Below, one piece after another: positions 1-44,500 of a stretch of DNA of 64,000 nt. A model generated the notes under the pieces. The model saw nothing but the letters and a program-made list of their open reading frames with translations. It was not told where the DNA came from and made no database searches. Location of the stretch: contig OZ076409.1 of assembly GCA_964187785.1 (NCBI GenBank), positions 70,620,001-70,684,000 of the forward strand, given 5' to 3'. This DNA is from Amphiscolops sp. MND2022. Taxonomy: Eukaryota. The translations under genes were made by a program, and so were the position numbers. Within the stretch, counting starts at the first letter, position 1; each line of letters begins with the position of its first letter.

Positions 1-349
1 CATTCGGAAATAACCGTTATGTTGACCCCAAAGTCCCCCTGGTACCGTAAATGACCGGAAATGGTCAAATTTTCTGTTTATAGGGTACAAATGTTTGGTA
101 TTTTGTAGATAAAAGTATCTATTAGGTGTTTCGACGGTCTGCAGTAGTGAACATAGTCATGAAACCTTGTGGGGGGTAACGGTATATAGCACCGGAAGTC
201 CAAACCGTTGGAGACAGGATAGGTTTTTTGGTTTTGAAATGTCTTTCGGCGTACTTTTGTCGACTATTAAGGACTACTTTTAAAAATTAAAGTTTTTCCA
301 TATAGTTTTAGAGACTCCGAAACCTCAACCAACATAACCGTTACCTCAT

Positions 350-393
350 GATAGCCTTTCAAGTTGGCCCGGTGTCAACTTGGAAGGGCTATC
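350..393. other. Family A subterminal long hairpin (one per A unit)
   Basis: GATAGCCTTTCAAGTTGGC-loop-GTCAACTTGGAAGGGCTATC; arms are complementary allowing G-T pairs and one bulge. Nearly invariant even in divergent A variants. Confidence 0.88.
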
Positions 394-694
394 CTTCAAA
401 AATCGTCAATCAAGTGTGTTTTTGGGTATGTTTGTATCATTTTAGAATCAAATAGAGCTTCAAGAAAAGTTTGCCAACGACAAAAACTATGTCGTGATGA
501 TTCTGTTATTAGAATCATAGTGAGCAAATTGTTGAAAAAAATGGTTTTTTTCCATACAAAATGTGTCCTAATTGCCAGGAAACCTATTTAACTAACAAAT
601 GGTATTGATTGGAATGTATGTAACAGAGTTATAAAAGTTCAAATTGATTATTACGTTTCATTATGGAAGCTGAAACGTAATATTTTAGTTTAAT

Positions 695-770
695 TAACGT
701 CAACGCCACACACTTTACATCAACGCCCACCGTCTGTGGGCATGCCGAGGCATGCCCTTCGACGACGTAT
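695..770 (+). other. Conserved terminal box with 20-nt palindrome (first of 35 copies)
   Basis: AACGTCAACGCCAC...CATCAACGCCCACCGTCTGTGGGCATGCCGAGGCATGCCCTTCGACGACGTAT. The inverted repeat GGGCATGCC-GA-GGCATGCCC lies at 738-757. Present before every junction in all three families. Confidence 0.95.
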
Positions 771-810
771 GGCAAATCCCTTCTAACGACGCCCGTACAT
801 CCCGGGCTAG

Positions 811-2082
811 GTGGCCGGAAATTTTTTTTTCAGCAAAATCTTTGCCATTGGGGGAGGGGCCCCGGATGGCCAGTAGTACGGGATAGCTTCCTACCAAATC
901 CAGATGGAAAAAACGTGATTTTGGAAACTAGCCGTCAGAATTTGCTCAAATTTTGCATACGGCTTCCTATAACAATCCTAAGAACTAATCCCTACTGGCA
1001 TTTTGCCCAAAAAACGCAAAAAGTTGGTCAAAATCTTAGTTTTTTGGTCAAAAAATGGCGTTTTTTCGAAAAAAAATTTTTTCAGAGACAATTACTCGGA
1101 ACTGGTTCACCTAGCGCAAAAACGCCTAGCTGATTTATTGTTGGGCACTTCATGAGGAGTGTGTATACAAATTTTCGTCCAAATCGGATAAAAGTTGATT
1201 GAGAAATAACTGAAAATTTGAGGCATTTTTTTGGAAATTTTTGAAATCCCAGTCTATCTCTGCCGTTTTTTGCCCAGATTTTTTTCCAGACACTTTCCTA
1301 AAGACCTCCCCTGGCCGGTTTACCTCCCAGCAAAACCATTTGGCCCTAAATACGGAGTTTCAGCATTCCAGCAAACCCCGGGTAAAAGATAAATGACTTA
1401 GAATTTTTTCGAAAATTTTTCAAAAAATTTTTTTTTCAAATTCAGGCCTCCTAAAGTCAAGAAAGTTCCACACAACTAGGATTGCAAGTGATAGCATGTG
1501 GAAAGTGCTTGAATAGACGAGAAAAATGAGCTTATATACGACTCTGTAGCTTAACTTGACGTTGACTTATGATAATTTTAGTGTGAGCTTCGTATGTGCT
1601 GAAAAAATCAAAGAAACCTAAAAGTCTTTTAAAAGTAATCAGAATACGTCCAATGAACCACAGAGCTGTTAAATTGCCGTTGTGCAGTAGAGCAACACCA
1701 TTTAGAGTATTTTGACCCATTTTGATAAGTTTTGATACCGTCTTGTTCTTCTGATAGCACAAAACAGTTGAGTACATTCCATCTCCCCCCTTGTGGGGGA
1801 GATGAGAATGTACTCGCTAAAAGTCAGGTACTATAGCACCCATTTTGTTTTATTCGACGCTAGCGATGCTATTGCACACGAATACAATAGTTTTGTCAAA
1901 TAATGTTTAACATGATGAATCTTACTATACCTTTAGTGTACGTTAACCTACTACTACAACATCGCATCCGTAACGTCAACGCCACATACTCGCTTCAGCG
2001 CCCACCGTCCGTGGGCATGCCGAGGCATGCCCTTCGACGACGTATGCCAAATAGCGCCACACGGCGCAAACATTCCCGCTAG
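811..2082 (+). repeat. Family B unit (head type B1, 1272 bp) with C-like 3' half
   Basis: Starts GTGGCCGGAAATTTT and contains the B core CCATTTGGCCCTAAATACGGAGTTTCAGC. Hairpin at 1770-1815. Ends with the common terminal box and CTAG. Confidence 0.93.
1770..1815. other. Family B/C subterminal long hairpin (one per B and C unit)
   Basis: GAGTACATTCCATCTCCCCC-CTTGT-GGGGGAGATGAGAATGTACTC. The stem is kept while the loop varies among the 9 copies. Confidence 0.9.
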
Positions 2083-4056
2083 GTGCGGGGGGGTAACCCC
2101 TACAAAGATATTGGAGGATTCGGGTAGGGTCCTGAATCCGAGTTCAGTGCTGCCAGCTATCGTTAGGGATTTGAGAAAATTTTGCCGATCTCGTGATCTA
2201 ACCGTAGGATTTTAAAGTTGGAGCGGCCCCCACCAGATTTTCCAAAGTTATTCGCCCCCCACCGGGTTCCAGCGTGATTGAAATATTTTGACGGGGTACA
2301 CGGGCGACCGTTAGGGGTCATTTTGGGGGTAAAATTTATATCCGGTCGCATAACTTTTTTCCTGTTGGTTTAAAACTTTGGGACCCTGCTAAAAGTTTCT
2401 TGACCTTGTTGCAGTGGCTCCGGAGGTCCAAACCAAATTTTTCTATCTTGAAGCTATCTCCAAGTACCCCCCCGCCCAAACCGTTATTTTTCCGGAAACG
2501 CAGGTTTTTGACCCGGAAGGAGTCGTCTGAGCGCGGGGTCGTTAGGTGATGTATTGGGGACGGCCTTGAGACGAAGCGGGGGACATGTAGTTTGCCGACC
2601 CCAGTTTACCCCCCGGACGGGAAATGACCGTTATTTGAGCGGGAAAAATGCCCCCCTCCACGTTTTACCGCTATTTCCGGTGTGAAGGAGTGGGAGTAGC
2701 GCGTCGGGTGTTATATAACAAAAGTAGGTTTAGACAAGGACCTATCGGAAACATGTGGTTTGGGACCCCCAGGCCCAACCCGTTAGCGGGAAATGGGGCT
2801 TCCGCCTCCTTTTTTTACTGCTAAAACCGTAAAATGGGCATTGAGGGGTAAATATCTCGTGAACGCGTGGAGCTACAGTGTCCATCACTACTACAAGGTT
2901 TCATACCCATGATATGGTGCCTTCAGGGGGGCAAACAGATTTCCGCTATCTATCACCGTTACGGACTTGGCCCCCCAGCCTAACCGCTATGTGACCGGAA
3001 ATGTCACTTTTTGAGCCCAAAGGGTCGGTCCCAGCCAGGGAACGTTAGGTAACTTATTGTAGTACTCAATGAGACGAGTTGGGGGACATAGTTTCAGTCA
3101 CCCCCCGTTACCCCTTGGGACCGGAAATGACCGTTATGTGGGTAAAATTGCAATATATGTACTTTTTAAAGGATTTTTAGATGCGGAAGGAGTGGTAATA
3201 GGTGCTTGGACACTATATGATGATAGGGAGGACGTGAGGCGAGCATTCGGAAATAACCGTTATGTTGACCCTAAAGTCCCCCTGGTACCGTAAATGACCG
3301 GAAATGGTCAAATTTCGTGTTTAAAGGGTACAAATGTTTGGTGTTTTATGGATAACAGTACCTATTAGGTGTTTCGACGGTATGCAGTCGTGAACATAGT
3401 CATGAAACCTTGTGGGGGGTAACGGTATATAGCACCGGAAGTGCAAACTGTTGGAGACAGGATAAGTTTTTTGGTTTTAAAATGTCTTTCGGCCTACTTT
3501 TGTTGACTATTATGGACTATTTTTGAAAAATAAAGTTTTTCCATATAGTTTCAGAGACTCCGAAACCTCAACCAACATAACCGTTACCTTATGATAGCCT
3601 TTCAAGTTGGCCTGGTGTCAACTTGGAAGGGCTATCCTTCAAAAATCATTAATCAAGTGTGTTTTTGAGTATGTTTGTTTTACTTTAGAATCAATTAGAG
3701 CTTCAAGAAAAGTTTGCCAACGATAAAAACTATGTCGTGATGATTCCGTTATTAGAAAAATAGTTAACAAAATATTGATAAAGTTGATTTTTTACATTTC
3801 AAATGTGTCCTAAATGCCAGAAAAACTCTTTACCAAACAAATGGTATTGATTGGATTGTATATAACAGCTAATAAAAGTTCAAATTGAATATTACGTTTC
3901 ATTATGGAAGCTGAAACGTCATATTATAGATTCATTACTGTCAACGCCACATACTTTACATCAACGCCCACCGTCCGTAGGCATGCCGAGGCATGCCTTT
4001 CGACGACGTATACCAAATTCCACCCACACAACACCCCCGAGCGCGGTAGCAGCTAG
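2083..4056 (+). mobile_element. Representative family-A unit, putative non-autonomous Helitron-like or site-specifically integrating element
   Basis: Discrete ends (GTG...CTAG), subterminal palindrome, no TIRs, no target-site duplication, no poly(A), no coding capacity. A 3' CTAG with an upstream hairpin resembles Helitron 3' ends (CTRR), but the 5' end is GTG rather than TC, so the class assignment is inference. Confidence 0.45.
2089..2139 (+). other. Family A head hairpins
   Basis: GGGG-GTAA-CCCC (or GGGG-GAAA-CCCC) at 2089-2100, then GGATTCGGG-TAGGGT-CCTGAATCC at 2116-2139. Confidence 0.75.
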
Positions 4057-7000
4057 GTGCGGGGGGGTAACCCCTACAAAGATATTGGAGGATTCGGGTA
4101 GGGTCCTGAATCCGAGTTCAGTGCTGCCAGCTATCGTTAGGGATTTTAGAAAATTTTGCCGATCTCGTGATCTAACCGTAGGATTTTAAAGTTGGAGCGG
4201 CCCCCACCAGATTTTCCAAAGTTATTCGCCCCCCACCGGGTTCCAGCGTGATTGAAATATTTTGTCGGGGTACACGGGCGACCGTTAGGGGTCATTTTGG
4301 GGGTAAAATTTATATCCGGTCGCATAACTTTTTTCCTGTTGGTTTAAAACTTTGGGACCCTGCTAAAAGTTTCTTGACCTTGTTGCAGTGGCTCCGGAGG
4401 TCCAAACCAAATTTTTCTATCTTGAAGCTATCTCCAAGTACCCCCCCGCCCAAACCGTTATTTTTCCGGAAACGCAGGTTTTTGACCCGGAAGGAGTCGT
4501 CTGAGCGCGGGGTCGTTAGGTGATGTATTGGGGACGGCCTTGAGACGAAGCGGGGGACATGTAGTTTGCCGACCCCAGTTTACCCCCCGGACGGGAAATG
4601 ACCGTTATATGAGCGGGAAAAAAGCCCCCCTCCACGTTTTACCGCTATTTCCGGTGTGAAGGAGTGGGAGTAGCGCGTCGGGTGTTATATAACAAAAGTA
4701 GGTTTAGACAAGGACCTATCGGAAACATGTAGTTTGGGACCCCCTGGACCAACCCGTTAGCGGGAAATGGGGCTTCCGCCTCCTTTTTTTACTGCTAAAA
4801 CCGTAAAATGGGCATTGAGGGGTAAATATCTCGTGAACGCGTGGAGCAATCGTGTCCATCACTACTACAAGGTTTCATACCCATGATATGGTGCCTTCAG
4901 GGGGGCAAACAGATTTCCGCTATCTATCACCGTTACCGACTTGGCCCCCCAGCCTAACCGCTATGTGACCGGAAATGTCACTTTTTGAGCCCAAAGGGTC
5001 GGTCCCAGACGGGGAACGTTAGGTAACTTATTGTAGTACTCAATGAGACGAGTTGGGGGATATAGTTTCAGTCACCCCCCGTTACCCCTTGGGACCGGAA
5101 ATGACCGTTATGTGGGTAAAATTGCAATTTTTATACTTTCTCAAGTGTATTTAGGTGCGGAAGGAGTGGTAATAGGTGCTTGGACACTATATGAGGTAAG
5201 GGAGGACGTGAGGCGAGCATTCGGAAATAACCGTTATGTTGACCCTAAAGTCCCCCTGGTACCGTAAACCACCGGAAATGGTCAAATTTTGTGTCTATTG
5301 GGTACAAATGTTTTGTATTTTGTAGATAAAAGTATCTATTAGGTGTTTCGACGGTCTACAGTAGTGAACATAGTCATGAAACCTTGTGGGGGGTAACGGT
5401 ATATAGCACCGGAAGTCAAACCGTTGGAGACAGGATAGGTTTTTTGGTTTTAAAATGTCTTTCGGCGTAATTTTTTCGACTCTTGTGGACTATTTTTAAA
5501 AATTAAAGTTTTTCCATATAGTTTCAGAGACTCCGAAACCTCAACCAACATAACCGTTACCTTATGATAGCCTTTCAAGTTGGCCTGGTGTCAACTTGGA
5601 AGCGCTATCCTTCTGAAATCGTTAATCAAGAGTGTTTTTGGGTAGGTATATATTGCATTAGTACCAATTAGAGCTTCATCAACAGTGTATCAACGACAAA
5701 AACTATGCCGTCATGATTCCGTTATTAGAATCATAGTGAGCAAATTGTTGAAAAAAAATGGTTTTTTCCATACAAAATGTGTCCTAAATGCCAGGAAACC
5801 TATTTACCTAACAAATGGTATTAATTGGAATGTAAGTAACAGATTTATAAAAGTTCAAATTGAATATTACATTTCATTATGGAAGCTGAAACGTCATATT
5901 TTAGTTTAATTAACGTCAACGCCACACACTTTACATCAACGCACACCGTCTGTGGGCATGCCGAGGCATGCCCTTCGACGACGTATGACAAATCCATATC
6001 AAACGACGCCCGTACATGCCGGGCTAGGTGCGGGGGGGTAACCCCAACAAAGATATTGGAGGATTCGGGTAGGGTCCTGAATCCGATCTTAGTACCGTCA
6101 GCTATCAGTAGAAAATTTCCCTCAAAAACCGGGATCTCGGGAACTAACCGTAGGATTTGAAAGTTGGAGCGGCCCCCACCAGATTTTCCCAAATAGATCG
6201 CCCCCCACCGGGCTCCATACCCCGGAAAATTTTTTTTTGGCCACACGGGCGACTGTTAGGGGGTCATTTTAGGGGTAAAATTCATATTGGTCCATATAAC
6301 TTTTTTTCTGTTGGTTTAAAAGTTTGGGAACCCTTCTAAAGGTTTTTCGACCATGTTGCAAGGGCTCCGGAGGTGCAAACCAAATTTTTCTATCTTGAAG
6401 CTATCTCCAAGTACCCCCCCGCTCAAACCGTTATTTTTCCGGAAACGCAGGTTTTTGACCCGGAAGGAGTCGTCTGAGCGCGGGGTCGTTAGGTGATGTT
6501 TTGGGGACGGCCTTGAGACAAAGTGGGGGACAAGTAGTTTGCCAACCTTAATTTACCCCCCGGACGGGAAATGACCGTTATATGAGCGTGAAAAATGCCC
6601 ACCTCCACGTTTTACCGCTATTTCCGGTGTGAAGGTGTGGGAGTAGCGCGTCGGGTGCCATATATCAAAAGTAGGTTTAGACAAGGATCTATCAAAAACA
6701 TGTGGTTTGGGACCCCCTGACCCAACCCGTTAGCGGGAAATGGGGCTTCCGCCTCCTTTTTTTTCGGTTAAAAACGGAAAATGGGCATTGAGGGGTAAAT
6801 ATCTCGTGAACGCGTGGAGCTACGGTGTCCTTCACTACTACAAGGTTTCATACCCATGATATGGTGCCTTCAGGGGGGCAAACAGATTTCCGCTATCTAT
6901 CACCGTTACGGACTTGGCCCCCCAGCCTAACCGCTATGTGACCGGAAATGTCACTTTTTGAGCCCAAAGGGTCGGTCCCAGCCAGGGAACGTTAGATAAC

Positions 7001-8002
7001 TTTTTGTAGTACTCATTGAGACGAGTTGGGGGACATAGTTTCAGTCACCCCCCGTTACCCCTTGTGACCGGAAATGACCGTTATGTGGGTAAAATTGGGA
7101 TTTTTGTACTTTTTGAAGGGCAATTAGGTGCGGAAGGAGTGGTAATAGGTGCTTGGACACTATATGATGGAATGGAGGACGTGAGGCGAACATTCAGACA
7201 TAACCGTTATGTTGACCCTAAAGTCCCCCTGGTACCGTAAACGACCGGAAATGGTCAAATTTTGTGTCTATTGGGTACAAATGTTTGGTATTTTGTAAAT
7301 AAAAGTATCTATTAGGTGTTTCGACGGTCTGCAGTAGTGAACATAGTCATGAAACCTTGTGGGGGGTAACGGTATATAGCACCGGAAGTCCAAAACGTTA
7401 GAGACGGGATAGGTTTTTCCGTTTTAAAATGTCTTTCGGCGTACTTTTGTCAACTAATATGGAATATTTTTTAAAATTAAAGTTTTTCCATATAGTTTCA
7501 GAGACTCCCAAACCTCAAACAACATAACCGTTACCTTATGATAGCCTTTCAAGTTGGCCTGGTGTCAACTTGGAAGGGCTATCCTTCAAAAATCGTTGAT
7601 CAAGTGTGTTTTTGGGTATGTTTGAATCATTTTAGAATCAATTAGAGCTTCAAGAAATGTTTGCCAACGACAAAAACTATGTCGTGATGATTCCGTTATT
7701 AGAGTAATAGTTAACAAAATATTGATTAAGTTGATTTTTTACATTTCAAAAGTGTCCTAAAAGCCAGAAAACCTCTTTACCAAACAAATGGTATTGATTG
7801 GATTGTATATAACAGGTAATAAAAGTTCAAATTGATTATTACGTTTTATTATGTAAGCTGAAACGTCATATTATAGTTTAATTAACGTCAACGCCACATA
7901 CTTTACACCAACGCCCACCGTCTGTGGGCATGCCGAGGCATGCCCTTCGACGACGTATACCAAATACATTTCATATCTACACCCACCCGCGGTAGCAGCT
8001 AG

Positions 8003-9290
8003 GTGGCCGGAAATTTTTTTTTTCATCAAAATCTTTGCCATTGGGGGAGGGGCCCCGGATGGCCAGTAGTACGGGATAGCTTCCTACCAAATCCAGATGG
8101 AAAAAACGTGATTTCGGAAACTAGCCGTCAGAATTTGCTCAAATTTTGCATACGGCTTCCTATGACAATCCTAAGAACTAATCCCTACTGGCATTTTGCC
8201 CAAAAAACGCAAAAAGTTGGTCAAAATCTTAGTTTTTTGGTCAAAAAATGGCAATTTTTCGAAAAAATTTTTTTTCAGAGACAATTACTCGTAACTGGTT
8301 CACCCAGCGCAAAAACGCCTAGCTGATTTATTTTTGGGCACTTCATGAGGAGTGCGTATACAAATTTTCGTCCAGATCGGAAAAAAATTCACTAAGTATT
8401 AGCCGGAATTCGGACGCATTTTTTCGCAAATTTTTGAAAACCTAGTCTATCTCTGCCGTTTTTTGCCCAGATTTTTTTCCAGGTCCTCTCCTAAAGGCCT
8501 CCCCTGGCCGGTTTACTTCCCAGAAAAACCATTTGGCCCTAAATACGGAGTTTCAGCGTTCTAGCATTCCCGGGCGAAAAGATGTGGGACTTAGAAAAAA
8601 TTCAAAATTTTTCAAAAATTTTTTTTTTCGTTTTCCGGCCCCCCAATGAAGGGGAACGACCCCCCAACGAGGATTTTTGGTGAATTCACGTGGAAAGGCC
8701 TTGTTTTGTGGATCAAATTGCCGTTTAGAGCGACTTTTTATCTTAACTTGACGTTGACCTCTGTCGTTTTGAATTTGATATTAGTATGTGTTGAGCATGT
8801 GAAAAGTTGATGATTTCAGTTGTTCTCTCGTGTTCAAGCCATTAAGATACAAGCGGTAGTGATCAAAATGTGATTTATCGCAATTTGGTGGTGCTTTTGG
8901 TGTATTTTGATTCTTTTAAATAAAAAGTTGTTCTTTATATATTTGGTGTATTGATTCAAATGAACAAGAAACAGTTGAGTACATTTCATCTCCCCCCTTG
9001 TGGGGGAGATGAGGATGTACCCGCTAAATGACACGCACAATGGGCCAATTTTACTTTTATGCGACGTTTCCTAGGCTTTTGCGCAAGCCCACTACTATTT
9101 AGACTGGTTTCCTTTTCTTTTACTCCAAAATTTTCCGTACTAACCACCTTACGCACCACCAGCTCATCGTAACATCTGTAACGTCAACGCCACATACTCG
9201 CATCAACTCCCACCGTCCGTGGGCATGCCGAGGCATGCCCTTCGACGACGTATGCCAAATAGCGCCACAGGGCGCCCACTCTTTCGCTAG
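8003..9290 (+). repeat. Family B unit (head type B1, 1288 bp)
   Basis: First ~380 nt nearly identical to the start of unit 811. B core, subterminal hairpin and terminal box present. Confidence 0.93.
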
Positions 9291-12200
9291 GTGCGGGGGG
9301 GAAACCCCATCCCTTATCATGGAGGATTCGGGTAGGGTCCTGAATCCGAGTTCAGTGCCGCCAGCTCTCAGTAGAAATCTGGGAAATTTTTTGCGATCTC
9401 GTGATCTAACCATAGGATTTTAAAGTTGGAGCGGCCCCCACCAGATTTTCCAAAGTTATTCGCCCCCCACCGGGTTCCAGCGTGATTGAAATATTCTGAC
9501 GGGGTACACGGGCGACCGTTAGGGGTCATTTTAGGGGTAAAATTTATATAATGTCGCTTAACTTTTTTCCTGTTGGATTAAAACTTTGGGACCCTGCTAA
9601 AAGTTTCTTGACCGTGTTGCAGGGGCCCCGGAGGTCCAAACCAAATTTTTCTATCTTGAAGCTATCTCCAAGTACCCCCCCGCCCAAACCGTTATTTTTC
9701 CGGAAATGCCGGTTTTTGACCCGGAAGGAGTTGTCTGAGCGCGGGATCGTTAGGTGATGTTTTGGGGACGGCCTCGAGACGAAGCGGGGGATATATAGTT
9801 TGCCGACCCCAGTTTACCCCCCGCACGGGAAATGACCGTTATATGAGCGGGAAAAATGTCCCCCTCCACGTTTTACCGCTATTTCCGGTGTGAAGGAGTG
9901 GGAGTAGCGCGTCGGGTGTTATATAACAAAAGTAGGTTTAGACAAGGACCTATCGGAAACATGTAGTTTGGGACCCCCTGGTCCAACCCGTTAGCGGGAA
10001 ATGGGGCTTCCGCCTCCTTTTTTTACTGCTAAAACCGTAAAATGGGCATTGAGGGGTAAATATCTCGTGAACGCGTGGAGCAATCGTGTCCATCACTACT
10101 ACAAGGTTTCATACCCATGATATGGTGCCTTCAGGGGGGCAAACAGATTTCCGCTATCTATCACCGTTACCGACTTGGCCCCCCAGCCTAACCGCTATGT
10201 GACCGGAAATGTCACTTTTTGAGCCCAAAGGGTCGGTCCCAGCCGGGGAACGTTAGGTAACTTATTGTAGTGCTAATTGAGACGAGTTGGGGGATATAGT
10301 TTCAGTCACCCCCCGTTACCCCTTGGGACCGGAAATGACCGTTATGTGGGTAAAATTGCAATTTTTATACTTTTTCAAGTGTATTTAGGTGCGGAAGGAG
10401 TGGTAATAGGTGCTTGGACACCATATGATGTAATGGAGGTCGAGAGGAGAGCATTCGGAAGTAACCGTTACGTTGACCCCAAAGTCCTCCTGGTACCGTT
10501 AACGAACGGAAATGGCCAAATTTTGTGTTTATAGGGTACAAATGTTTAGTATTTTGTAGATAAAAGTATCTATTAGGTGTTTCGGCGGTCTGCAATAGTG
10601 AACATAGTCATGAAACCTTGTGGGGGGTAACGGGGTATATAGCACCGGAAGTCCAAACCGTTGGACACAGGATAGGTTTTTGGTTTGAAAATGTCTTTCG
10701 GCGTACTTTTGTCGACTATTATGGACTATTATTAAAAATTAAAGTTTTTCCATATAGTTTCAGAGACTCCGAAATCTCAACCAACATAACCGTTACACTT
10801 TGATAGCCTTTCAAGTTGGCCTGGTGTCAACTTGGAAGCGCTATCCTTCTGAAATCGTTAATCAAGAGTGTTTTTGGGTAGGTATATATTGCATTAGTAC
10901 CAATTAGAGCTTCATCAACAGTGTATCAACGACAAAAACTATGCCGTCATGATTCTGTTATTAGAATCATAGTGAGCAAATAGTTGAAAAAAAATGGTTT
11001 TTTCCATACAAAATGTGTCCTAATGCCAGGAAACCTATTTACCTAACAAATGGTATTAATTGGAATGTATGTAACAGATTTATAAAAGTTCAAATTGAAT
11101 ATTACATTTCATTATGGAAGCTGAAACGTCATATTTCAGTTTAATTAACGTCAACGCCACATACTTTACATCAACGCCCACCGTCTGTGGGCATGCCGAG
11201 GCATGCCCTTCGACGACGTATACCAAATACATACCTAACGACGCCCGTACATCCCGGGCTAGGTGCGGGGGGGTAACCCCAACAAAGATATTGGAGGATT
11301 CGGGTAGGGTCCTGAATCCGATCTTAGTACCGCCAGCTATCAGTAGAAAATTTCCCTCAAAAACCGGGATCTCGGGAACTAACCGTAGGATTTGAAAGTT
11401 GGAGCGGCCCCCACCAGATTTTCCCGAATAGATCGCCCCCCACCGGGCTCCATACCCCGGAAAATTTTTTTTGGCCACACGGGCGACAGTTAGGGGGTCA
11501 TTTTAGGGGTAAAATTCATATTGGTCCATATAACTTTTTTCCTGTTGGTTTAAAAGTTTGGGAACCCTTCTAAAGGTTTTTCGACCATGTTGCAAGGGCT
11601 CCGGAGGTGCAAACCAAATTTTTCTATCTTGAAGCTATCTCCAAGTACCCCCCCGCTCAAACCGTTATTTTTCCGGAAACGCAGGTTTTTGACCCGGAAG
11701 GAGTCGTCTGAGCGCGGGGTCGTTAGGTGATGTTTTGGGGACGGCCTTGAGACAAAGTGGGGGACAAGTAGTTTGCCAACCTCAATTTACCCCCCGGACG
11801 GGAAATGACCGTTATATGAGCGTAAAAAATGCCCCCCTCCACGGTTTACCGCTATTTCCGGTGTGAAGGTGTGGGAGTAGCGCGTCGGGTGCCATATATC
11901 AAAAGTAGGTTTAGACAAGGATCTATCAAAAACATGTGGTTTGGGACCCCCTGACCCAACCCGTTAGCGGGAAATGGGGCTTCCGCCTCCTTTTTTTTCG
12001 GTTAAAAACGGAAAATGGGCATTGAGGGGTAAATATCTCGTGAACGCGTGGAGCTACGGTGTCCTTCACTACTACAAGGTTTCATACCCATGATATGGTG
12101 CCTTCAGGGGGGCAAACAGATTTCCGCTATCTATCACCGTTACGGACTTGGCCACCCAGCCTAACCGCTATGTGACCGGAAATGTCACTTTTTGAGCCCA

Positions 12201-15200
12201 AAGGGTCGGTCCCAGCCAGGGAACGTTAGATAACTTTTTGTAGTACTCATTGAGACGAGTTGGGGGACATAGTTTCAGTCACCCCCCGTTACCCCTTGTG
12301 ACCGGAAATGACCGTTATGTGGGTAAAATTGGGATTTTTGTACTTTTTGAAGGGCAATTAGGTGCGGAAGGAGTGGTAATAGGTGCTTGGACACTATATG
12401 ATGGAATGGAGGACGTGAGGCGAACATTCAGACATAACCGTTATGTTGACCCTAAAGTCCCCCTGGTACCGTAAACGACCGGAAATGGTCAAATTTTGTG
12501 TCTATTGGGTACAAATGTTTGGTATTTTGTAAATAAAAGTATCTATTAGGTGTTTCGACGGTCTGCAGTAGTGAACATAGTCATGAAACCTTGTGGGGGG
12601 TAACGGTATATAGCACCGGAAGTCCAAAACGTTAGAGACGGGATAGGTTTTTCCGTTTTAAAATGTCTTTCGGCGTACTTTTGTCAACTAATATGGAATA
12701 TTTTTTAAAATTAAAGTTTTTCCATATAGTTTCAGAGACTCCCAAACCTCAAACAACATAACCGTTACCTTATGATAGCCTTTCAAGTTGGCCTGGTGTC
12801 AACTTGGAAGGGCTATCCTTCAAAAATCGTTGATCAAGTGTGTTTTTGGGTATGTTTGAATCATTTTAGAATCAATTAGAGCTTCAAGAAATGTTTGCCA
12901 ACGACAAAAACTACGTCGTGATGATTCCGTTATTAGAGTAATAGTTAACAAAATATTGATTAAGTTGTTTTTTTACATTTCAAAAGTGTCCTAAAAGCCA
13001 GAAAACCTCTTTACCAAACAAATGGTATTGATTGGATTGTATATACCAGGTAATAAAAGTTCAAATTGATTATTACGTTTTATTATGTGAGCTGAAACGT
13101 CATATTATAGTTTAATTAACGTCAACGCCACATACTTTACACCAACGCCCACCGTCTGTGGGCATGCCGAGGCATGCCCTTCGACGACGTATACCAAATA
13201 CATTTCATATCTACACCCACCCGCGGTAGCAGCTAGGTGCGGGGGGGTAACCCCAACAAAAATTTTGGAGGATTCGGGTAGGGTCCTGAATCCGAGTTCA
13301 GTGCTGCCAGCTTTCGTTAAGAAAATTTGGATAGGATTCGGGATCTCGTGATCTAACCATAGGATTTTAAAGTTGGAGCGGCCCCCACCAGATTTTCCGA
13401 AAATTAGCGCCCCCCACCGGGTTCCATACCCCGGAAAATTTTTTTCTGGCCACACGGGCGACCGTTAGGGGGTCATTTTAGGGGTAAAATTCATATTGGG
13501 CCACATAACTTTTTTTCTGTTGATTTAAAACTTTGGGACCCTGCTAAAAGTTTCTTGACCGTGTTGCAGGGGCCCCGGAGGTCCAAACCAAATTTTTCTA
13601 TCTTGAAGCTATCTCCAAGTACCCCCCCGCCCAAAACGTTATTTTTCCGGAAACGCAGGTTTTTGACCCGGAAGGAGTCGTCGGAGCGCGGGGTCGTTAG
13701 GTGATGTATTGGGGACGGCCTTGAGACGAAGTGGGGGACATGCAGTTTGCCAACCCCAGTTTACCCCCCGGACGGGAAATGACCGTTATATGAGCGGGAA
13801 AAATGCCCCCTTCCACGTTTTACCGCTATTTCCGGTGTGAAGGAGTGGGAGTAGCGCGTCGGGTGTTAAATAAAAAAAGTAGGTTTAGACAAGGACCTAT
13901 CGGAAACATGTAGTTTGGGACCCCCTGGTCCAACCCGTTAGCGGGAAATGGGACTTCCGCCTCCTTTTTTTACTGCTAAAACCGTAAAATGGGCATTGAG
14001 GGGTAAATATCTCGTGAACGCGTGGAGCAATCGTGTCCATCACTACTACAAGGTTTCATACCCATGATATGGTGCCTTCAGGGGGGCAAACAGATTTCCG
14101 CTATCTATCACCGTTACCGACTTGGCCCCCCAGTCTAACCGCTATGTGACCGGAAATGTCCATTTTTGAGCCCAAAGGGTCGGTCCCAGCCGGGGAACGT
14201 TAGGTAACTTATTGTAGTACTCAATGAGACGAGTTTGGGGATATAGTTTCAGTCACCCCCCGTTACCCCTTGGGACCGGAAATGACCGTTATGTGGGTAA
14301 AATTGCAATTTTTATACTTTTTCAAGTGTATTTAGGTGCGGAAGGAGTGGTAATAGGTGCTTGGACACTATATGAGGTAAGGGAGGACGTGAGGCGAGCA
14401 TTCGGAAATAACCGTTATGTTGACCCTAAAGTCCCCCTGGTACCGTAAACGACCGGAAATGGTCAAATTTTGTGTCTATTGGTTACAAATGTTTAGTATT
14501 TTGTAGATAAAAGTATCTATTAGGTGTTTCGACGGTCTGCAATAGTGAACATAGTCATGAAACCTTGTGGGGGGTAACGGTATATAGCACCGGAAGTCCA
14601 AACCGTTGGAGACAGGATGAGTTTTTTGGTTTTAAAATGTCTTTCGGTGTTCCTTTGTCGACTATTAAGGACTATTTTTAAAAATTAAAGTTTTTCCATA
14701 TAGTTTCAGAGACTCCGAAACCTCAACCAACATAACCGTTACATTTTGATAGCCTTTCAAGTTGGCCTGGTGTCAACTTGGAAGCGCTATCCTTCTGAAA
14801 TCGTTAATCAAGAGTGTTTTTGGGGTAGGTATATATTGCATTAGTACCAATTAGAGCTTCATCAACAGTGTATCAACGACAAAAACTATGCCGTCATGAT
14901 TCCGTTATTAGAATCATAGTGAGCAAATTGTTGAAAAAAATGGTTTTTTCCATACAAAATGTGTCCTAAATGCCAGGAAACCTATTTACCTAACAAATGG
15001 TATTAATTGGAATGTATGTAACAGATTTATAAAAGTTCAAATTGAATATTACATTTCATTATGGAAGCTGAAACGTCATATTTTAGTTTAATTAACGTCA
15101 ACGCCACACACTTTACATCAACGCACACCGTCTGTGGGCATGCCGAGGCATGCCCTTCGACGACGTATGACAAATCCATATCAAACGACGCCCGTACATG

Positions 15201-31584: not shown

Positions 31585-33770
31585 GTGGAGGTTATTTTAT
31601 AATAATTAATGTGTTTTTTTCCGGAGTTTGTGGCTTTGGAAAAAACAAAAGGCGAGAAATTGGGCACTCCGGGCTGAACCGTAAAGGCCGATTTTATACT
31701 GTAAAAAACGCCCATTCTAACTACGATCTCGAAACCCAGCCGTACGATTTTGCTGAAAATTTGCATGCGGCTACAAAATCAGATTCTAAGAACTTTTTTC
31801 TGCTGACTTTTTTTTGGAATTTTTTTGTACGTTTCCCCCCCGCCCCCTAAAGGGGTCAATTTTCCCCAATTTTGTACTTATGAGTCATATTCTCAAAACT
31901 GGTTGATCTGAGAGCAATCCTTGTGGAGAGAACTTTTGTAGAGCGCTCTTCAGTTGACTTTTTGGAGTTTTTACTTTGGTGGTACGTTCACCCCCCACAG
32001 CGGAAATAGCGTTTTTGTAACTTCCGGTCGAGCAATTTTCCACCCAAAAATTAGAATTATGCCAGTTTAGAGCACGAAGCAGTAGTTTTAGCGTGTTCAC
32101 ACTCTCCTGAAGTTTTGTTGGGCGTATTGAGATAGACATGATATCAAGTGTTCAGTTCACCCCCATCACCCCCTGGACCGGAAATGAACTTTCTTTTTTC
32201 CCCTTTCTTACAGGAAGTGTCGATTTTCACCGGTAAGGAGTCCTTGTACGAGCAACTAGCAGGGCATCAAAATTGACGTACCACCTGGGGTCAACTTAGT
32301 GAACACGTGTTGTCCAGTCATGGGTACCGCCATGACCGGAAATGGGGTCAAAACCCCCCTTTTAGTTGTTGTTTCATCAATTTGACTAGTGTTTGGTCCA
32401 CATTCAAGTCGCGTAAAACAATTGAACCTGTGTGAGCATAAACTGCATGTTCACTGCGTAAACGTAACAGACACTGCCAGATACCGGAAGTAACCCCCCG
32501 TGACCGGAAGTTGTCATTTTTGACCGGAAATGTTCCAAAAAATAGCGTAAATGCAGTTTTTCACTGCTTTTTAAGGTCAAGTAATTACTTTTTTCAATCT
32601 GCACGAGCTTGTCTTCAGGTTCGCTTTTGTTATCCGTGCACAGCGCAACAAATATACATCTGTAAAATTTTCTCTATAATATCGTCGGAGAGAGAAATAA
32701 CGGGTTCTTGGGGCTTTTTTAAAAAAATAATAGTCTATATCTGTAATTTTTGTCCAAAGTTATTCAACAGTACTACCACAGGGGTTAGTCTCTGCCCAAA
32801 TACATGCCTAACAAAACTATTTGTCACATTCGTCTCAGTTTGAGCGCTCCAGCTTTGCCTGGTCATAAGTTAAGTGACGTAGAAAATTTTCATTTTTTTT
32901 TCAAAAAAAATTTCTCGCCTTCAGTTCCTCCAAAGTAAAGAAACTTCCTCACAACTAGGATTGCAAGTGGATGCATGTCGCAAGCCCTATAATTGAAGCA
33001 CAAAAAACCGCTTAGGACGTCTCTTCATCGTAATTTGACGTTAACGTATGGTGCTTTGAATGAGAGCTTGCTAAGGGGTCGAGAAGTCAAAGTATGTAAA
33101 TGGAACGTATGTCTCGTCGAAAAGTCATCGGAATACATGCAATGAACCCCAATTGCCCTCAATTGCAGCTGCCTAGTGCAACAACGTCTTTCAGGGACCT
33201 TTAACCTATTTTTATTTGTGTCAAAACTATTTTAAGTTCAGTTAGCAAGAAACACTTGAGTGCATTCTCATCTCTCCCCAGCGGGTGAGATGAGAATGTT
33301 CTTGCTAAAAGCCAGGTACTACGGCCCACTTTTGTTTTAATGCGACGCATTCTCTGCTTTAGCACATAGATATTTTTATTTCGCCTGATTTTCTGTATAC
33401 ACTCTGACTTGTTATTATGAGTTCCTCGTCATTACTTCACATATATTTACAATCATCAAACGTTATCGTCAACGCCAAATAGATTTAGGCGCCCACCATT
33501 ACGTAGGTATGTCGAGGCATACTTTTCGATTACGTATGTCAAAACGCAAACGCGATAAAAAGTGCTAAAATTCAGAAACAGTGACAAACAAATTTGACTA
33601 TTTGACATATGGGAGGTTTTCATATGGAACTTACACATAGCTGACATTTCACAACATTGCAGCTGACGCCCACATACCAACATCAACGCCCACTGTCCGT
33701 GGGCATGCCGAGGCATGCCCTTCGACGACGTTTGCCAAATACCCTTTACCGACGCGCACTCTGCCGCTAG
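31585..33770 (+). repeat. Family C unit 1 (2186 bp)
   Basis: Starts GTGGAGGTTATTTTATAATAATTAATG and is colinear with 33771-35963. Has a B-type hairpin near 33259-33302, a degenerate terminal box and an intact terminal box. Confidence 0.93.
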
Positions 33771-35963
33771 GTGGAGGTTATTTTATAATAATTAATGTGT
33801 TTTTTTCCGGAGTTTGTGGCTTTGGAAAAAACAAAAGGCGAGAAATCGGGCACTCCGGGCTGAACCGTATACACTCAAATTTCGCCCATTTTTTATACGA
33901 TCTCAAAACTCAGCCGTACGATTTGGCTGAAAATTTGCATGCGGCTACAAATTGAGATTCTAAGAACTATTTCCTGGTGACATTTTTTTGAAATTTTTGT
34001 GTACGTTTCCCCCCCGCCCCCTAAAGGGGCCAATTTTCCCCACTTTTGCACTTATGAGTCAAATTCTCAAAACTGGTGGATCTGAGCGTATTCCCGCCGG
34101 GGACAACTTTTAACAAGCGCTCCTCAGTAGACCTTCATGACTTTTTACTTTGGTGGTACGTTCACCCCCCGAGGAGGAAATTGCGTTTTTGTGACTTCCG
34201 GTCGAGGCTTTTTTCACCCAAAAATTAGATTTAAGCCAGTTTTGAGCAGGAAGGAGTGGATTTAAAGTGCCTGTACCCTGCTAAAAATTTGTTGGGCTTG
34301 TAGCGATATATCTCATACCAAGTCTGGTTTTCACCCCCAAACCCCCCTTGAGACCAAAATTCACCCAAAGTTTTTTACCTCTGTTTGTAGTTTTTTTACC
34401 GAATATCGTCATTTCCATGGGTAAGGAGTTGAATTAGGGGCTCCTAATAGGGTACCAATGTTCAAGTACACTTGCAGTGCAACTGATTGACCCTTTTTGG
34501 GCCTCTCCTGTGTTCGGCAAGGACCGGAAGCGGTGTAACCCCCCCTTTTTTGACGTTTGTTGACCTTGAGACTCGCGCTTAGATGACGTTTATGTCGCGC
34601 GAATCCTACAAACAAGTATTAGGATGACATGCTAGCCAACTAGAGAGCAGTAAGGGAAACAATATTATACCGGAAGTAACCCCCCGTGACCGGAAGTTGT
34701 CATTTTTGACCGCAAATGGTCCAAAACCTAGCGTAAAAGCAGTTTTTCATTGCTTTTAAAGTCAACTTCTTACATTTTTCAATCTGCGCGAGCTTTTCTT
34801 CAGGTTCGTTTTTGTTGCCAGTGCACAGCAACGAATATACAACTGTAAAATTTTCGCTATAAAATTGTCGGAGAGAGAAATAACGGATTATTTGGACTTT
34901 TTTTCAAAAATATTAGTCTACATCTGTCATTTTTACCCAATGTTACTCAACAGTAGAACCACAGGTTTTATTCTCTGCCCAAAAATATGCCTAACAAATT
35001 CACCTGTCCCTTTGGTTGCAGTTTGAGCATTCTAGCTTTACCTGGTCACAAGTTAGGGGACTTGAAAAAGTTTCAAAAATTTTTCCGAAAAATTTTTCTA
35101 AACGTCATGTCTCCCAAAGTTAAGAAACTTCCGCACAACTAGGATTACAAGTGAATGCACGTGGTAAGACCTATAATTGGAGAGAAAAATTCAGTTTGGA
35201 ACGTCTCTTTATCGTAACGTGACGTTAAGAGAAGTTGCTTTGAATGCGAGCTTGATGAGACGTCGAGAAGTAACAGTGTGTAAATGGAACCTATGTCTCG
35301 ACAAATACTCATCGGAATACATGAGATGAACCCCAATTACCCTCAATTTCAGTTGCCTAGTACAACAACGTCTTCCAAGGACCCTTTAATCTTTTTGATA
35401 AGCGTTGAAGTCATCATTAGCTTGAGTTCGCAAGAAACAATTGAGTACATTCTCATCTCTCCCCATCGGGTGAGATGAGAATGTTTTTGCTAAAAGCCAG
35501 GTACTACGGCCCAATTTTGTTTTATTGCGACGCATTCTGTGCTTTAGCACATAGATACTTTTATTCCGTCTCACTTTTTGTATACACTCTGATTTGTTGT
35601 TATAAATTTCTCGTCATTACTTTACATAAACTAATTACCATAAAACTTTAACGTCAAAGCCACATTCATTTAGACGCCCACCATTCCGTAGGTATGCCGA
35701 GGTATGCCATTCAAAGATGTATGTCAAACGCAAATGCGATAAAATTAGTGCTGAAAATCGGAAACAGTGACAAACAGTTTTGACTTTTTGATATTTGTTA
35801 GGTTTTCATATGGAACTTACACATCACTGACAATTCAAAACATTCCAGCTGACGCTCACATACAAACATCAACGCCCACCGTCTGTGGGCATGCCGAGGC
35901 ATGCCCTTCGACGACGTATAGCAAATTCCTTTAATATCTACACCCAATTGCGGTAGCAGCTAG
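33771..35963 (+). repeat. Family C unit 2 (2193 bp)
   Basis: First ~98 nt nearly identical to C unit 1, then visibly diverged but colinear. Ends with the terminal box and CTAG. Confidence 0.93.
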
Positions 35964-38516: not shown

Positions 38517-41500
38517 GTGCGGGGGGGTAACCCCAACAAAGATATTGGAGGATTCGGGTAGGGTCCTGAATCCGATCTTAGTACCGCCAGCTATCAGTAG
38601 AAAATTTCCCTCAAAAACCGGGATCTCGGGAACTAACCGTAGGATTTGAAAGTTGGAGCGGCCCCCACCAGATTTTCCCGAATAGATCGCCCCCCACCGG
38701 GCTCCATACCCCGGAAAATTTTTTTTTGGCCACACGGGCGACAGTTAGGGGGTCATTTTAGGGGTAAAATTCATATTGGTCCATATAACTTTTTTCCTGT
38801 TGGTTTAAAAGTTTGGGAACCCTTCTAAAGGTTTTTCGACTATGTTGCAAGGGCTCCGGAGGTGCAAACCAAATTTTTCTATCTTGAAGCTATCTCCAAG
38901 TACCCCCCCGCTCAAACCGTTATTTTTCCGGAAACGCAGGTTTTTGACCCGGAAGGAGTCGTCTGAGCGCGGGGTCGTTAGGTGATGTTTTGGGGACGGC
39001 CTTGAGACAAAGTGGGGGACAAGTAGTTTGCCAACCTCAATTTACCCCCCGGACGGGAAATGACCGTTATATGAGCGTGAAAAATGCCCCCCTCCACGTT
39101 TTACCGCTATTTCCGGTGTGAAGGTGTGGGAGTAGCGCGTCGGGTGCCATATATCAAAAGTAGGTTTAGACAAGGATCTATCAAAAACATGTGGTTTGGG
39201 ACCCCCTGACCCAACCCGTTAGCGGGAAATGGGGCTTCCGCCTCCTTTTTTTTCGGTTAAAAACGGAAAATGGGCATTGAGGGGTAAATATCTCGTGAAC
39301 GCGTGGAGCTACGGTGTCCTTCACTACTACAAGGTTTCATACCCATGATATGGTGCCTTCAGGGGGGCAAACAGATTTCCGCTATCTATCACCGTTACGG
39401 ACTTGGCCCCCCAGCCTAACCGCTATGTGACCGGAAATGTCACTTTTTGAGCCCAAAGGGTCGGTCCCAGCCAGGGAACGTTAGATAACTTTTTGTAGTA
39501 CTCATTGAGACGAGTTGGGGGACATAGTTTCAGTCACCCTCCGTTACCCCTTGTGACCGGAAATGACCGTTATGTGGGTAAAATTGGGATTTTTATACTT
39601 TTTGAAGGGCAATTAGGTGCGGAAGGAGTGGTAATAGGTGCTTGGACACTATATGATGGAATGGAGGACGTGAGGCGAACATTCAGACATAACCGTTATG
39701 TTGACCCTAAAGTCCCCCTGGTACCGTAAACGACCGGAAATGGTCAAATTTTGTGTCTATTGGGTACAAATGTTTGGTATTTTGTAAATAAAAGTATCTA
39801 TTAGGTGTTTCGACGGTCTGCAGTAGTGAACATAGTCATGAAACCTTGTGGGGGGTAACGGTATATAGCACCGGAAGTCCAAAACGTTAGAGACGGGATA
39901 GGTTTTTCCGTTTTAAAATGTCTTTCGGCGTACTTTTGTCAACTAATATGGAATATTTTTTAAAATTAAAGTTTTTCCATATAGTTTCAGAGACTCCCAA
40001 ACCTCAAACAACATAACCGTTACCTTATGATAGCCTTTCAAGTTGGCCTGGTGTCAACTTGGAAGGGCTATCCTTCAAAAATCGTTGATCAAGTGTGTTT
40101 TTGGGTATGTTTGAATCATTTTAGAATCAATTAGAGCTTCAAGAAATGTTTGCCAACGACAAAAACTATGTCGTGATGATTCCGTTATTAGAGTAATAGT
40201 TATCAAAATATTGATTAAGTTGATTTTTTACATTTCAAAAGTGTCCTAAAAGCCAGAAAACCTCTTTACCAAACAAATGGTATTGATTGGATTGTATATA
40301 ACAGGTAATAAAAGTTCAAATTGATTATTACGTTTTATTATGTAAGCTGAAACGTCATATTATAGTTTAATTAACGTCAACGCCACATACTTTACACCAA
40401 CGCCCACCGTCTGTGGGCATGCCGAGGCATGCCCTTCGACGACGTATACCAAATACATTTCATATCTACACCCACTCGCGGTAGCAGCTAGGTGCGGGGG
40501 GGAAACCCCAACAAAGATATTGGAGGATTCGGGTAGGGTCCTGAATCCGATCTTAGTACCGTCAGCTATCAGTAGAAAATTTCCCTCAAAAACCGGGATC
40601 TCGGGAACTAACCGTAGGATTTGAAAGTTGGAGCGGCCCCCACCAGATTTTCCCGAATAAATCGCCCCCCACCGGGCTCCATACCCCGGAAAATTTTTTT
40701 TTGGCCACACGGGCGACTGTTAGGGGGTCATTTTAGGGGTAAAATTCATATTGGTCCATATAACTTTTTTTCTGTTGGTTTAAAAGTTTGGGAACCCTAC
40801 TAAAGGTTTTTCGACCATGTTGCAAGGGCTCCGGAGGTGCAAACCAAATTTTTCTATCTTGAAGCTATCTCCAAGTACCCCCCCGCTCAAACCGTTATTT
40901 TTGCGGAAACGCAGGTTTTTGACCCGGAAGGAGTCGTCTGAGCGCGGGGTCGTTAGGTGATGTATTGGGGACGGCCTTGAGACGAAGCGGGGGACATGTA
41001 GTTTGCCACCCTCAGTTTACCCCCCGGACGGGAAATGACCGTTATATGAGCGGGAAAATTGCCCCCCTCCACGTTTAACCGCTATTTCCGGTGTGAAGGA
41101 GTGGGAGTAGCGCGTCGGGTGCCATATATCAAAAGTAGGTTTAGACAAGGATCTATCAAAAACATGTGGTTTGGGACCCCCTGACCCAACCCGTTAGCGG
41201 GAAATGGGGCTTCCGCCTCCTTTTTTTTCGGTTAAAAACGGAAAATGGGCATTGAGGGGTAAATATCTCGTGAACGCGTGGAGCTACGGTGTCCTTCACT
41301 ACTACAAGGTTTCATACCCATGATATGGTGCCTTCAGGGGGGCAAACAGATTTCCGCTATCTATCACCGTTACGGACTTGGCCCCCCAGCCTAACCGCTA
41401 TGTGACCGGAAATGTCACTTTTTGAGCCCGAAGGGTCGGTCCCAGCCAGGGAACGTTATATAACTTTTTGTAGTACTCATTGAGACGAGTTGGGGGCCAT

Positions 41501-44500
41501 AGTTTCAGTCACCCCCCGTTACCCCATGTGACCGGAAATGACCGTTATGTGGGTAACATTGGGATTTTTGTACTTTTTGAAGGGCAATTAGGTGCGGAAG
41601 GAGTGGTAATAGGTGCTTGGACACTATATGATGGAATGGAGGACGTGAGGCGAACATTCAGACATAACCGTTATGTTGACCCTAAAGTCCCCCTGGTACC
41701 GTAAACGACCAGAAATGGTCAAATTTTGTGTCTATTGGGTACAAATGTTTAGTATTTTGTAAATAAAAGTATCTATTAGGTGTTTCGACGGTCTGCAGTA
41801 GTGAACATAGTCATGAAACCTTGTGGGGGGTAACGGTATATAGCACCGGAAGTCCATAACGTTAGAGACGGGATAGGTTTTTCCGTTTTTAAATGTCTTT
41901 CGGCGTACTTTTGTCAACTAATATGGAATATTTTTTAAAATTAAAGTTTTTCCATATAGTTTCAGAGACTCCCAAACCTCAAACAACATAACCGTTACCT
42001 TATGATAGCCTTTCAAGTTGGCCTGGTGTCAACTTGGAAGGGCTATCCTTCAAAAATCGTTGATCAAGTGTGTTTTTGGGTATGTTTGAATCATTTTAGA
42101 ATCAATTAGAGCTTCAAGAAATGTTTGCCAACGACAAAAACTATGTCGCGATGATTCCGTTATTAGAGTAATAGTTAACAAAATATTGATTAAGTTAATT
42201 TTTTACATTTCAAAAGTGTCCTAAAAGCCAGAAAACCTCTTTACCAAACAAATGGTATTGATTGGATTGTATATAACAGGTAATAAAAGTTCAAATTGAT
42301 TATTACGTTTTATTATGTAAGCTGAAACGTCATATTATAGTTTAATTAACGTCAACGCCACATACTTTACACCAACGCCCACCGTCTGTGGGCATGCCGA
42401 GGCATGCCCTTCGACGACGTATACCAAATACATTTCATATCTACACCCACCCGCGGTAGCAGCTAGGTGCGGGGGGGAAACCCCAACAAAATTTTTGGAG
42501 GATTCGGGTAGGGTCCTGAATCCGAGTTCAGTGCTGCCAGCTTTCGTTAAGAAAATTTGGATAGGATTCGGGATCTCGTGATCTAACCATAGGATTTTAA
42601 AGTTGGAGCGGCCCCCACCAGATTTTCCGAAAATTAGCGCCCCCCACCGGGTTCCATACCCCGGAAAATTTTTTTCTGGCCACACGGGCGACCGTTAGGG
42701 GGTCATTTTAGGGGTAAAATTCATATTGGGCCACATAACTTTTTTTCTGTTGATTTAAAACTTTGGGACCCTGCTAAAAGTTTCTTGACCGTGTTGCAGG
42801 GGCCCCGGAGGTCCAAACCAAATTTTTCTATCTTGAAGCTATCTCCAAGTACCCCCCCGCCCAAAACGTTATTTTTCCGGAAACGCAGGTTTTTGACCCG
42901 GAAGGAGTCGTCGGAGCGCGGGGTCGTTAGGTGATGTATTGGGGACGGCCTTGAGACGAAGTGGGGGACATGCAGTTTGCCAACCCCAGTTTACCCCCCG
43001 GACGGGAAATGACCGTTATATGACCGAAAAAAATGCCCCCCTCCACGTTTTACCGCTATTTCCGGTGTGAAGGAGTGGGAGTAGCGCGTCGGGTGCCATA
43101 TATCAAAAGTAGGTTTAAACAAGGAACTATCGGAAACATGTGGTTTGGGACCCCCTGGACCAACCCGTTAGCGGGAAATGGGACTTCCGCCTCCTTTTTT
43201 TACGGTTAAAAACGGAAAATGGGCATTGAGGGGTAAATATCTCGTGAACGCGTGGAGCTACGGTGTCCTTCACTACTACAAGGTTTCATACCCATGATAT
43301 GGTGCCTTCAGGGGGGCAAACAGATTTCCGCTATCTATCACCGTTACGGACTTGGCCCCCCAGCCTAACCGTTAAGTGACCGGAAATGTCATATTTTGAA
43401 CCCAAACGGTCGATCCTAGCCGGGCAACGTTAGGTAACATATTGTAGTACTCATTGAGACGAGTTGGGGGATCTAGTTTCAGTCACCACCCGTTACCCCT
43501 TGAGACCGGAAATGACCGTTATGTGAGTAGAATTGCAATTTTTATACCTTTTGAAGGGCATTTAGGTGCGGAAGGAATGGTAATAGGTGCTTGGACACTT
43601 TATGATGTAATGGAGGTCGTGAGGAGAGCATTCGGAAGTAACCGTTACGTTGACCCCAAAGTCCCCCTGGTACCGTTAACAACCGGAAATGGCCAAATTT
43701 TGTGTTTATAGGGTACAAATGTTTGGTATTTTATGGATAAAAGTACCTGGAAGGTGTTTTAAAGGCCTCCAGAAGTGAACATAGTCATGAAACTTTGTGG
43801 GGGGTAACGGTATATAGCACCGGAAGTCCAAACCGTTAGTTACAGAATAGGTTTTTTGGTTTCAAAATGTCTTTAGGCGTAGTTTTGTGGGTTGAATCGT
43901 CATAATATCAACTAATACGGACTTTTTTCGGAAATAAAATTTTTTCACATTAGTTTCAGGGACCTCCAATGTTTCAGTCAACATAACCGTTACATTTTGA
44001 TAGCCTTTCAAGTTGGCCTGGTGTCAACTTGGAAGGGCTATCCTTCTAAAATCGTTAATCAAGAGTGTTTTTGGGTAGGTATATGTTGCATTAGTACCAA
44101 TTAGAGCTTCATCAACAGTTTGCCAACGGCAAAAACGATGTCGTGATAATTCCGTTATAAGAATATTAATTAACAAATTGTTTCCAAAGTTGATTTTTTC
44201 CATTCGAAATGTGTCCCAATGCCACCAAATTGAATAAAATAATAAATGGTATTGACTAAAACTAAATAACATTGAAAAAGAAGCTCAACATTTTTAATAG
44301 GTCTCATAATGGAAGCTGAAACCTCACGTTTTAACTTAATTAACGTCAACGCCACATACTTTACATCAACGTCCGCCGTCTGTGGGCATGCCGAGGCATG
44401 CCCTTCGACGACGTATACCAATTACATATATATCTACACCCACCCGCGGTAGCAGCTAGGTGCGGGGGGGTAACCCCAACAAATATATTGGAGGATTCGG

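Follow-up and report, generated by a model that had tools for sequence, protein, structure and literature searches.

What keeps one 20-bp palindrome in place near the end of every unit of a tandem array, when the bodies of those units belong to five different families? The array fills the window, that is, the whole stretch of 64,000 nucleotides analysed here (1–64000, + strand), and consists of 34 complete units arranged head to tail with a partial unit of family A at each end. The complete units (A 25, B 2, C 3, D 2, L 2) measure 1268–2193 bp: about 1.97 kb in family A, about 1.3 kb in B, C and D, and about 2.2 kb in L. Degenerate motifs within the first 200 bases are common to the five families, the bodies of which are 67–89% alike in local alignments or unalignable. 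The window is without a credible gene. Its longest open reading frame has 161 codons' worth of amino acids (161 aa), and none of 14 frames, picked among the longer ORFs of two lists (49 and 33), matches Pfam. At the gathering score there is no Rfam match in the window or in the metagenomic relative described below (five sub-threshold matches in 1–12000 have E 1.8–4.4), and a tRNA search found none. Neither terminal inverted repeats nor visible poly(A) were found in the units. This make-up suggests a eukaryotic host; CpG is not depleted (o/e 0.96). Degenerate internal repeats occur in family A at 2390–3560, with spacings of 503, 167 and 126 bp, and in the L units with spacings of 158–178 bp.

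A search for RGGCATGCCNNGGCATGCCY allowing up to two mismatches returns 35 matches in the window, all of them exact and on the + strand, and none in 100 shuffled versions of it. The first-pass annotation had described a terminal palindrome common to all families, and we indeed find it in all 35 units and in every family, identical across five. The outer pair is G..C in 29 copies (such as 738–757, +) and A..T in six, with no G..T, A..C or otherwise asymmetric copy. The A..T copies start at 3979 (3979–3998, +), 19085, 28261, 54237, 56230 and 58204, and the units that carry them, all of family A and of one tail type, end at 4056, 19162, 28338, 54314, 56307 and 58281, the same six unit ends that the annotation had listed. 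Positions 2–19, the inner 18 bases, are invariant in 35/35 copies, and so are the unpaired bases −2, −1 and 21–23. The block at 731–764 (+), made up of the palindrome, CGTC/GACG arms outside it and two unpaired spacers of 3 nt, is invariant except at position −3. The arms had been said to extend the stem; GACG is present in all copies and CGTC in 34/35, the copy at 33701 bearing TGTC, a one-sided change. Further upstream the shared end block contains two 8-bp direct repeats (700–707 and 720–727, within 700–727, +) that lie 20 bp apart, and their −37/−17 spacing is found in 27/35 copies. On either strand the predicted fold of the 20-mer is a stem of 8 bp closed by a 4-nt loop, and in a context of 91 nt its z is about −2 to −2.8. 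Since each arm is self-complementary, the palindrome can also be read as a direct repeat of 10 bp, built from two 8-mers that are each self-complementary; we take it to bear some likeness to bacterial REP repeats. The palindrome is the invariant core of an end block common to 35 gene-less units.

How far does this invariance reach beyond the array? A metagenome scan that fixed only the flanks returned one contig, OBOP01004400.1 (L001), with a body 67–75% alike to the short families. Around the palindrome 51/51 of its bases match the A..T form, and 52 nt downstream it has a junction reading CGAG/GTG (about 880–886) and no CTAG. The unit past that junction (887–1172) has an A-like head followed by a family D match and then a family A match, a mixture that suggests shared ancestry or a shuffling of modules. 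Among sequencing runs we find one match (X1, share 0.08), and no RNA run among the matches listed; over 6028–9160 this run yields 11 contigs, 10 of them less than 95% alike, and a loose end, another tail ending in CTAG (two contigs, agreement 0.67). The palindrome has no hits in viral contigs, phage records give no match, and the core pattern has no hits in prokaryote genomes. The sole prokaryotic match to the pattern with flanks (L002) was set aside as chance because its middle is not palindromic. The 18-base core occurs in none of the papers searched, and we found no description of this family in the literature, though supplements and repeat libraries (Repbase) could hold one.

Identity across five diverged families together with the 51/51 match in the metagenomic relative supports the view that the palindrome is under strong constraint. 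The loop and the flanks outside the pairing vary no more than the stem does, a pattern that points to sequence-specific recognition; with the match in L001 it shows that conservation concerns the sequence and not symmetry alone. Each of the two L units carries in addition a diverged second copy of the palindrome, at 33505–33524 (+; 196 nt upstream of the terminal copy, 31/50 identical to the core block) and at 35690–35709 (+; 197 nt upstream, 34/50 identical). The diverged end blocks around them span 33488–33537 and 35673–35722, and no CTAGGTG follows either. In the stems of these upstream copies five pairs are not Watson-Crick, four of them being G-T on the + strand, and one inner pair carries changes in both arms. 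This hints at a hairpin, although two wider tests for strand bias, given below, were negative.

The first-pass annotation had taken the outer pair, which changes from G-C to A-T on both sides, as a sign that symmetry is under selection. We do not find that the swap carries this conclusion. At positions −3, 1 and 20 three haplotypes occur, T-G-C (n = 21), C-G-C (n = 8) and C-A-T (n = 6), and in the 25 units of family A the unpaired position −3 is in perfect step with 1 and 20 (six C-A-T, 19 T-G-C). The six A..T copies are therefore one linked end-haplotype and not six events. Such association is common nearby: among site pairs 10–30 nt apart, 91 of 629 informative pairs are perfectly associated, as are 34 of 174 at similar allele counts, that is, 14–20%. 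The single origin that the annotation had proposed for the six variants holds for the end module, with a tail distance of 0.044 within the group vs 0.286, and does not extend to the body, where distances over the first 1200 columns are equal; because the tail is shared and those columns are not, what we see is one end-haplotype. The A..T form would then be an old end-haplotype spread by conversion or by the swapping of end modules. One-sided variants, which, if frequent, had been named as evidence against selection on symmetry, are absent from the 20-mer, and the outer arm holds the single instance noted above. A covariation test had also been proposed. Counted over 38 sequences, only six of them distinct and two of them the diverged upstream copies, 93% of cells are paired, and 2 of 500 shuffles attain the covariation score, which is inflated by kinship among the sequences. 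As evidence for covariation the compensatory change is weak.

The palindrome might instead be a double-stranded tetramer site, possibly for a host p53-family protein, in which case unit ends would answer DNA damage or germline signals; we consider this unlikely. Against the p53 consensus of two RRRCWWGYYY decamers without spacer (PMC5905954) both forms of the palindrome, and so 35/35 copies, match at 19/20 positions; elements of this kind may have a spacer of 0–13. The only positions that vary (R at 1, Y at 20) remain within the consensus, every other 20-mer of the window has more than two mismatches to it, and repeats spaced at 10 bp and 20 bp would suit binding to a duplex. Known response elements of this family resemble the palindrome in their two adjacent decamers and as inverted repeats able to form a cruciform (PMC5905954, PMC7817693). 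The chance that a perfect 9-bp inverted repeat drawn at random matches this well is about 4e-4, or about 0.01 if the arms are self-complementary, and the match was spotted after the fact; a duplicated palindromic 10-mer would by itself yield the double symmetry. The site is putative and differs from p53-family elements in that conservation extends well past the 20-mer; its sole off-consensus base (G at 10) is invariant as well. The upstream copies in the L units lose the core C or G (three and four mismatches) while mostly keeping their pairing, and the host may lack p53. Under the consensus, two haplotypes that differ at both outer positions would be complementary in one case out of two, and the G-C/A-T swap therefore does not tell a hairpin from a duplex site. 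A tetramer site and a mobile-element origin can coexist.

A fixed junction follows the end block. Every unit has a single CTAGGTG on the + strand (for instance at 807–813), 35 in all, and the − strand has one; GTG follows CTAG in 35/35 cases, and on the − strand C follows in 34/35. From the end of the palindrome to the last base of CTAG we measure 44–58 nt in the 35 units, which keeps the upper bound of the 41–58 nt given earlier and raises the lower. The tail that spans this distance (758–810, +, in the first unit end of the window) has about 18 conserved nucleotides, then one of seven types, and ends in CTAG. Tail type, in classes of our own definition, is tied to the body that precedes it (p 5e-5 by permutation) and shows no association with the next head (p 0.45). 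Unlike units are thus joined at a 7-base junction and not by crossing over in the longer shared block; an A-like tail on one L unit shows that exchange of blocks also occurs. The cut would fall somewhere inside CTAGGTG, and, given the CGAG/GTG of L001, AGGTG may be the true invariant. An intron was rejected on the independence of tail and head. Six tails hold an earlier, unused CTRR. Hairpins near the ends of the tails are no more stable than those of shuffles (mean z −0.4), and a 5-bp hairpin at the spacing of canonical Helitrons occurs in two B tails.

On these grounds we tentatively read the palindrome, at somewhat below an even chance, as the signal that marks the right end of non-autonomous rolling-circle (Helitron-like) transposons, which would stack at the junction. 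A transposase encoded elsewhere would read the end block; an HUH-type enzyme would do so by sequence, the motif probably being folded into a hairpin on the strand that is displaced. After cleavage at the junction the enzyme would connect the end with the GTG start, and the copy would enter a resident unit at that unit's own copy of the junction, with the result that different families stack. In favour of this are the single CTAGGTG in each unit (35/35), the tie between tail type and the preceding body, the lack of terminal inverted repeats, of visible poly(A) and of Pfam or Rfam matches, and a hairpin in the unit head that keeps its pairing while the stem changes. Among the features of Helitrons are a CTAG at the 3' end, a 3' hairpin that serves as terminator, and head-to-tail junctions that are precise (PMC4778049); in Helraiser the 3' hairpin acts as terminator and circles are joined exactly end to end (PMC4778049, PMC5876387), and unlike maize Helitrons lie head to tail through consecutive insertion (PMC2267711). 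Against it stand the 5' end, which is GTG and not TC in 35/35 units, the CGAG/GTG of L001 without CTAG, the 44–58 nt between palindrome and end vs 10–15 bp in canonical Helitrons (PMC2267711), and a stem that is invariant where the Helraiser hairpin has a stem sequence that can be exchanged (PMC4778049). A strand-neutral scan of inverted repeats (6 G-T vs 5 A-C mismatches) gives no window-wide sign of a single-stranded phase, singletons of family A, counted on the + strand, number 29 for C>T against 43 for G>A and so have no excess of C>T, and within the window we see no transposase, dispersed copy or flank.

Would these units be recognised as Helitrons of either group, as defined in PMC11417382 and PMC2267711? 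They share with Helraiser/Helibat and the maize r1 pair a 3' CTAG, an upstream palindrome and the lack of terminal inverted repeats (PMC4778049, PMC5876387, PMC2267711), and with canonical Helitron arrays the precise head-to-tail joins, the adjacency of unlike elements and the size range of non-autonomous elements, and differ from the arrays covered in those accounts in running to 35 units of five families in a row. The 3' CTRR of the canonical group (HLE1) is present as CTAG at 35/35 junctions, but the 5' TC is missing, the palindrome is too far from the end and L001 has CGAG, and we do not file the units there. Members of that group also insert between A and T without a TSD. The second group (HLE2) offers closer parallels in one respect: mite HINEs have a palindromic repeat 38–60 bp from the 3' end (PMC4067079), a distance that matches ours, shared by the family and followed by a subfamily-specific tail, as in HINE/DINE-1 elements at large (PMC4067079, PMC11417382), which also have a hairpin near the 5' end. 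In contrast to Helentrons and HINEs as described there, our units have a CTAG end and no matching 5' repeat copy, T-rich ends or TT junction. Among 10 representative units, paired subterminal inverted repeats of 11–18 nt were found in one, an 11-nt match at offset 90 that is not shared; with nine units lacking them and no T ends, this filing too was rejected. Helitrons with variant ends, and arrays derived from Helitrons, have been described before (PMC13085455, PMC11934779, PMC12628747). Replitrons likewise have no TIRs, a right-end palindrome and an oriented junction 3' of RG (AG here), and they have short direct terminal repeats and fuzzy ends, where the termini of our units are shared within an array; the units show no Rep ORF, and the part of the Replitron account drawn on here describes no mixed arrays (PMC10288648). 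KolobokP multimers are tandem arrays of DNA elements too, and our junction can be read as their YY/RR (CT/AG) (PMC9587614); the array has one junction per unit and none of the long terminal direct repeats with TIRs or the TTAA target duplication of those elements, and we rejected a Kolobok or KolobokP assignment.

The short shared core at which units join could also be the crossover core, of 7–8 bp, of a site-specific recombinase (tyrosine, as in Cryptons, or serine, as in IS607) that would integrate circles, with the palindrome as an accessory protein site. L001 retains the central GG though not CTAG, and IS607-type elements lack TIR and TSD, form circles and insert at GG, while CryptonS elements have a short motif common to end and target (PMC13565253). 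This, too, is improbable, and slightly more so than a duplex-bound tetramer: we find no conserved inverted arms flanking the junction and see no recombinase ORF in the window, both of which set the array apart from IS607-type elements and Cryptons in that description, spacing that varies over 44–58 nt is a poor fit for a phased accessory site, and the head hairpin covaries like a single-stranded structure.

That head hairpin begins about 30 nt past the junction and contains G-T pairs. In family A (2116–2139, +; z −2.9) it has a 9-bp stem, with the core GGGKAGGGBCCY about 40 nt after the junction. The core, found in 33/35 heads and never in shuffles, lies at the hairpin tip, and the lower stem differs between families; in L001 the stem is altered yet paired (z −2.6). 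Folding of the whole head gives modest z values (+1.3 to −2.3). The head hairpin is a better candidate for covariation than the palindrome itself. A conserved hairpin with G-T pairs just past a junction that looks like a splice site by eye might suggest that the end block is the promoter of an RNA starting near the junction, either of an RNA gene or of an RNA-mediated element whose promoter, placed at the 3' end, would drive the next unit downstream. We give this very little credence. Tail and head are unlinked, and hence no single RNA, such as a spliced leader, spans the junction; with no Rfam match at the gathering score either, a spliced-leader or other Rfam RNA gene was discarded. The absence of a tRNA match and of poly(A), and a spacing that varies by 14 nt, speak against the promoter as well.

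Other inverted repeats lie within the units. One in family A (3598–3630, no strand assigned) sits inside the longest invariant run of that family (38 nt), and a second is found at 649–682, both in the last 450 bp of the unit. A longer one (1770–1815, no strand assigned) is common to B, C, D, L and L001 (copy at about 567–606), lies 224–439 nt upstream of the palindrome and has conserved arms around a variable centre of 4–12 nt; it is reminiscent of a recombinase or dimer site.

Could the array instead be an old transposon-derived satellite? In that case its end block would have been homogenised by gene conversion and the paired change produced by template switching within the palindrome, with no selection on symmetry. 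The units of family A are indeed mosaic, with four-gamete conflicts in 20% of site pairs 10–30 nt apart; the end module alone is common to the six A..T copies, one L unit bears an A-like tail, and 56 of 1991 18-column windows in family A are likewise invariant. Such an origin is nonetheless hardly probable, given that L001 is identical at 51/51 bases of the block vs 67–75% in the body, that the junction is precise and independent of the next head, that the upstream copies in the L units diverge where the terminal ones do not, and that neighbours are not homogenised: adjacent A units are 91.2% identical (21 pairs) and non-adjacent ones 90.9% (279 pairs), and A pairs of 99.4% identity sit far apart. 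Neighbours that are no closer than distant units, together with these remote pairs, fit insertion unit by unit, as the rolling-circle reading proposes. Four A units (6028–8002, 11263–13236, 38517–40491 and 40492–42466) are 98–99.4% identical over distances of up to 34 kb, which suggests a recent spread of one subfamily.

What, then, does the locus add? The end signal is real and strongly conserved, and the mixed array that carries it is unusual; the compensatory pair by itself adds little. Mixed head-to-tail stacks of Helitrons are already known; the ends described here, with a GTG start, a distant invariant palindrome and tolerance of CGAG, fit neither Helitron group and match no other described class cleanly, and annotation based on signatures would therefore likely miss them. 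The end block is a ready probe for an autonomous partner, which would name the enzyme. Binding by a p53-family protein, if true, would link a damage sensor directly to the end of a DNA transposon. In its boldest form, to which we assign a low probability, the array would represent a so far undescribed class of self-targeting mobile elements in eukaryotes, stacking families in cassette-like arrays at AG/GTG, with a near-perfect p53-family tetramer site at every end that may tie their mobilisation or silencing to the DNA-damage response.
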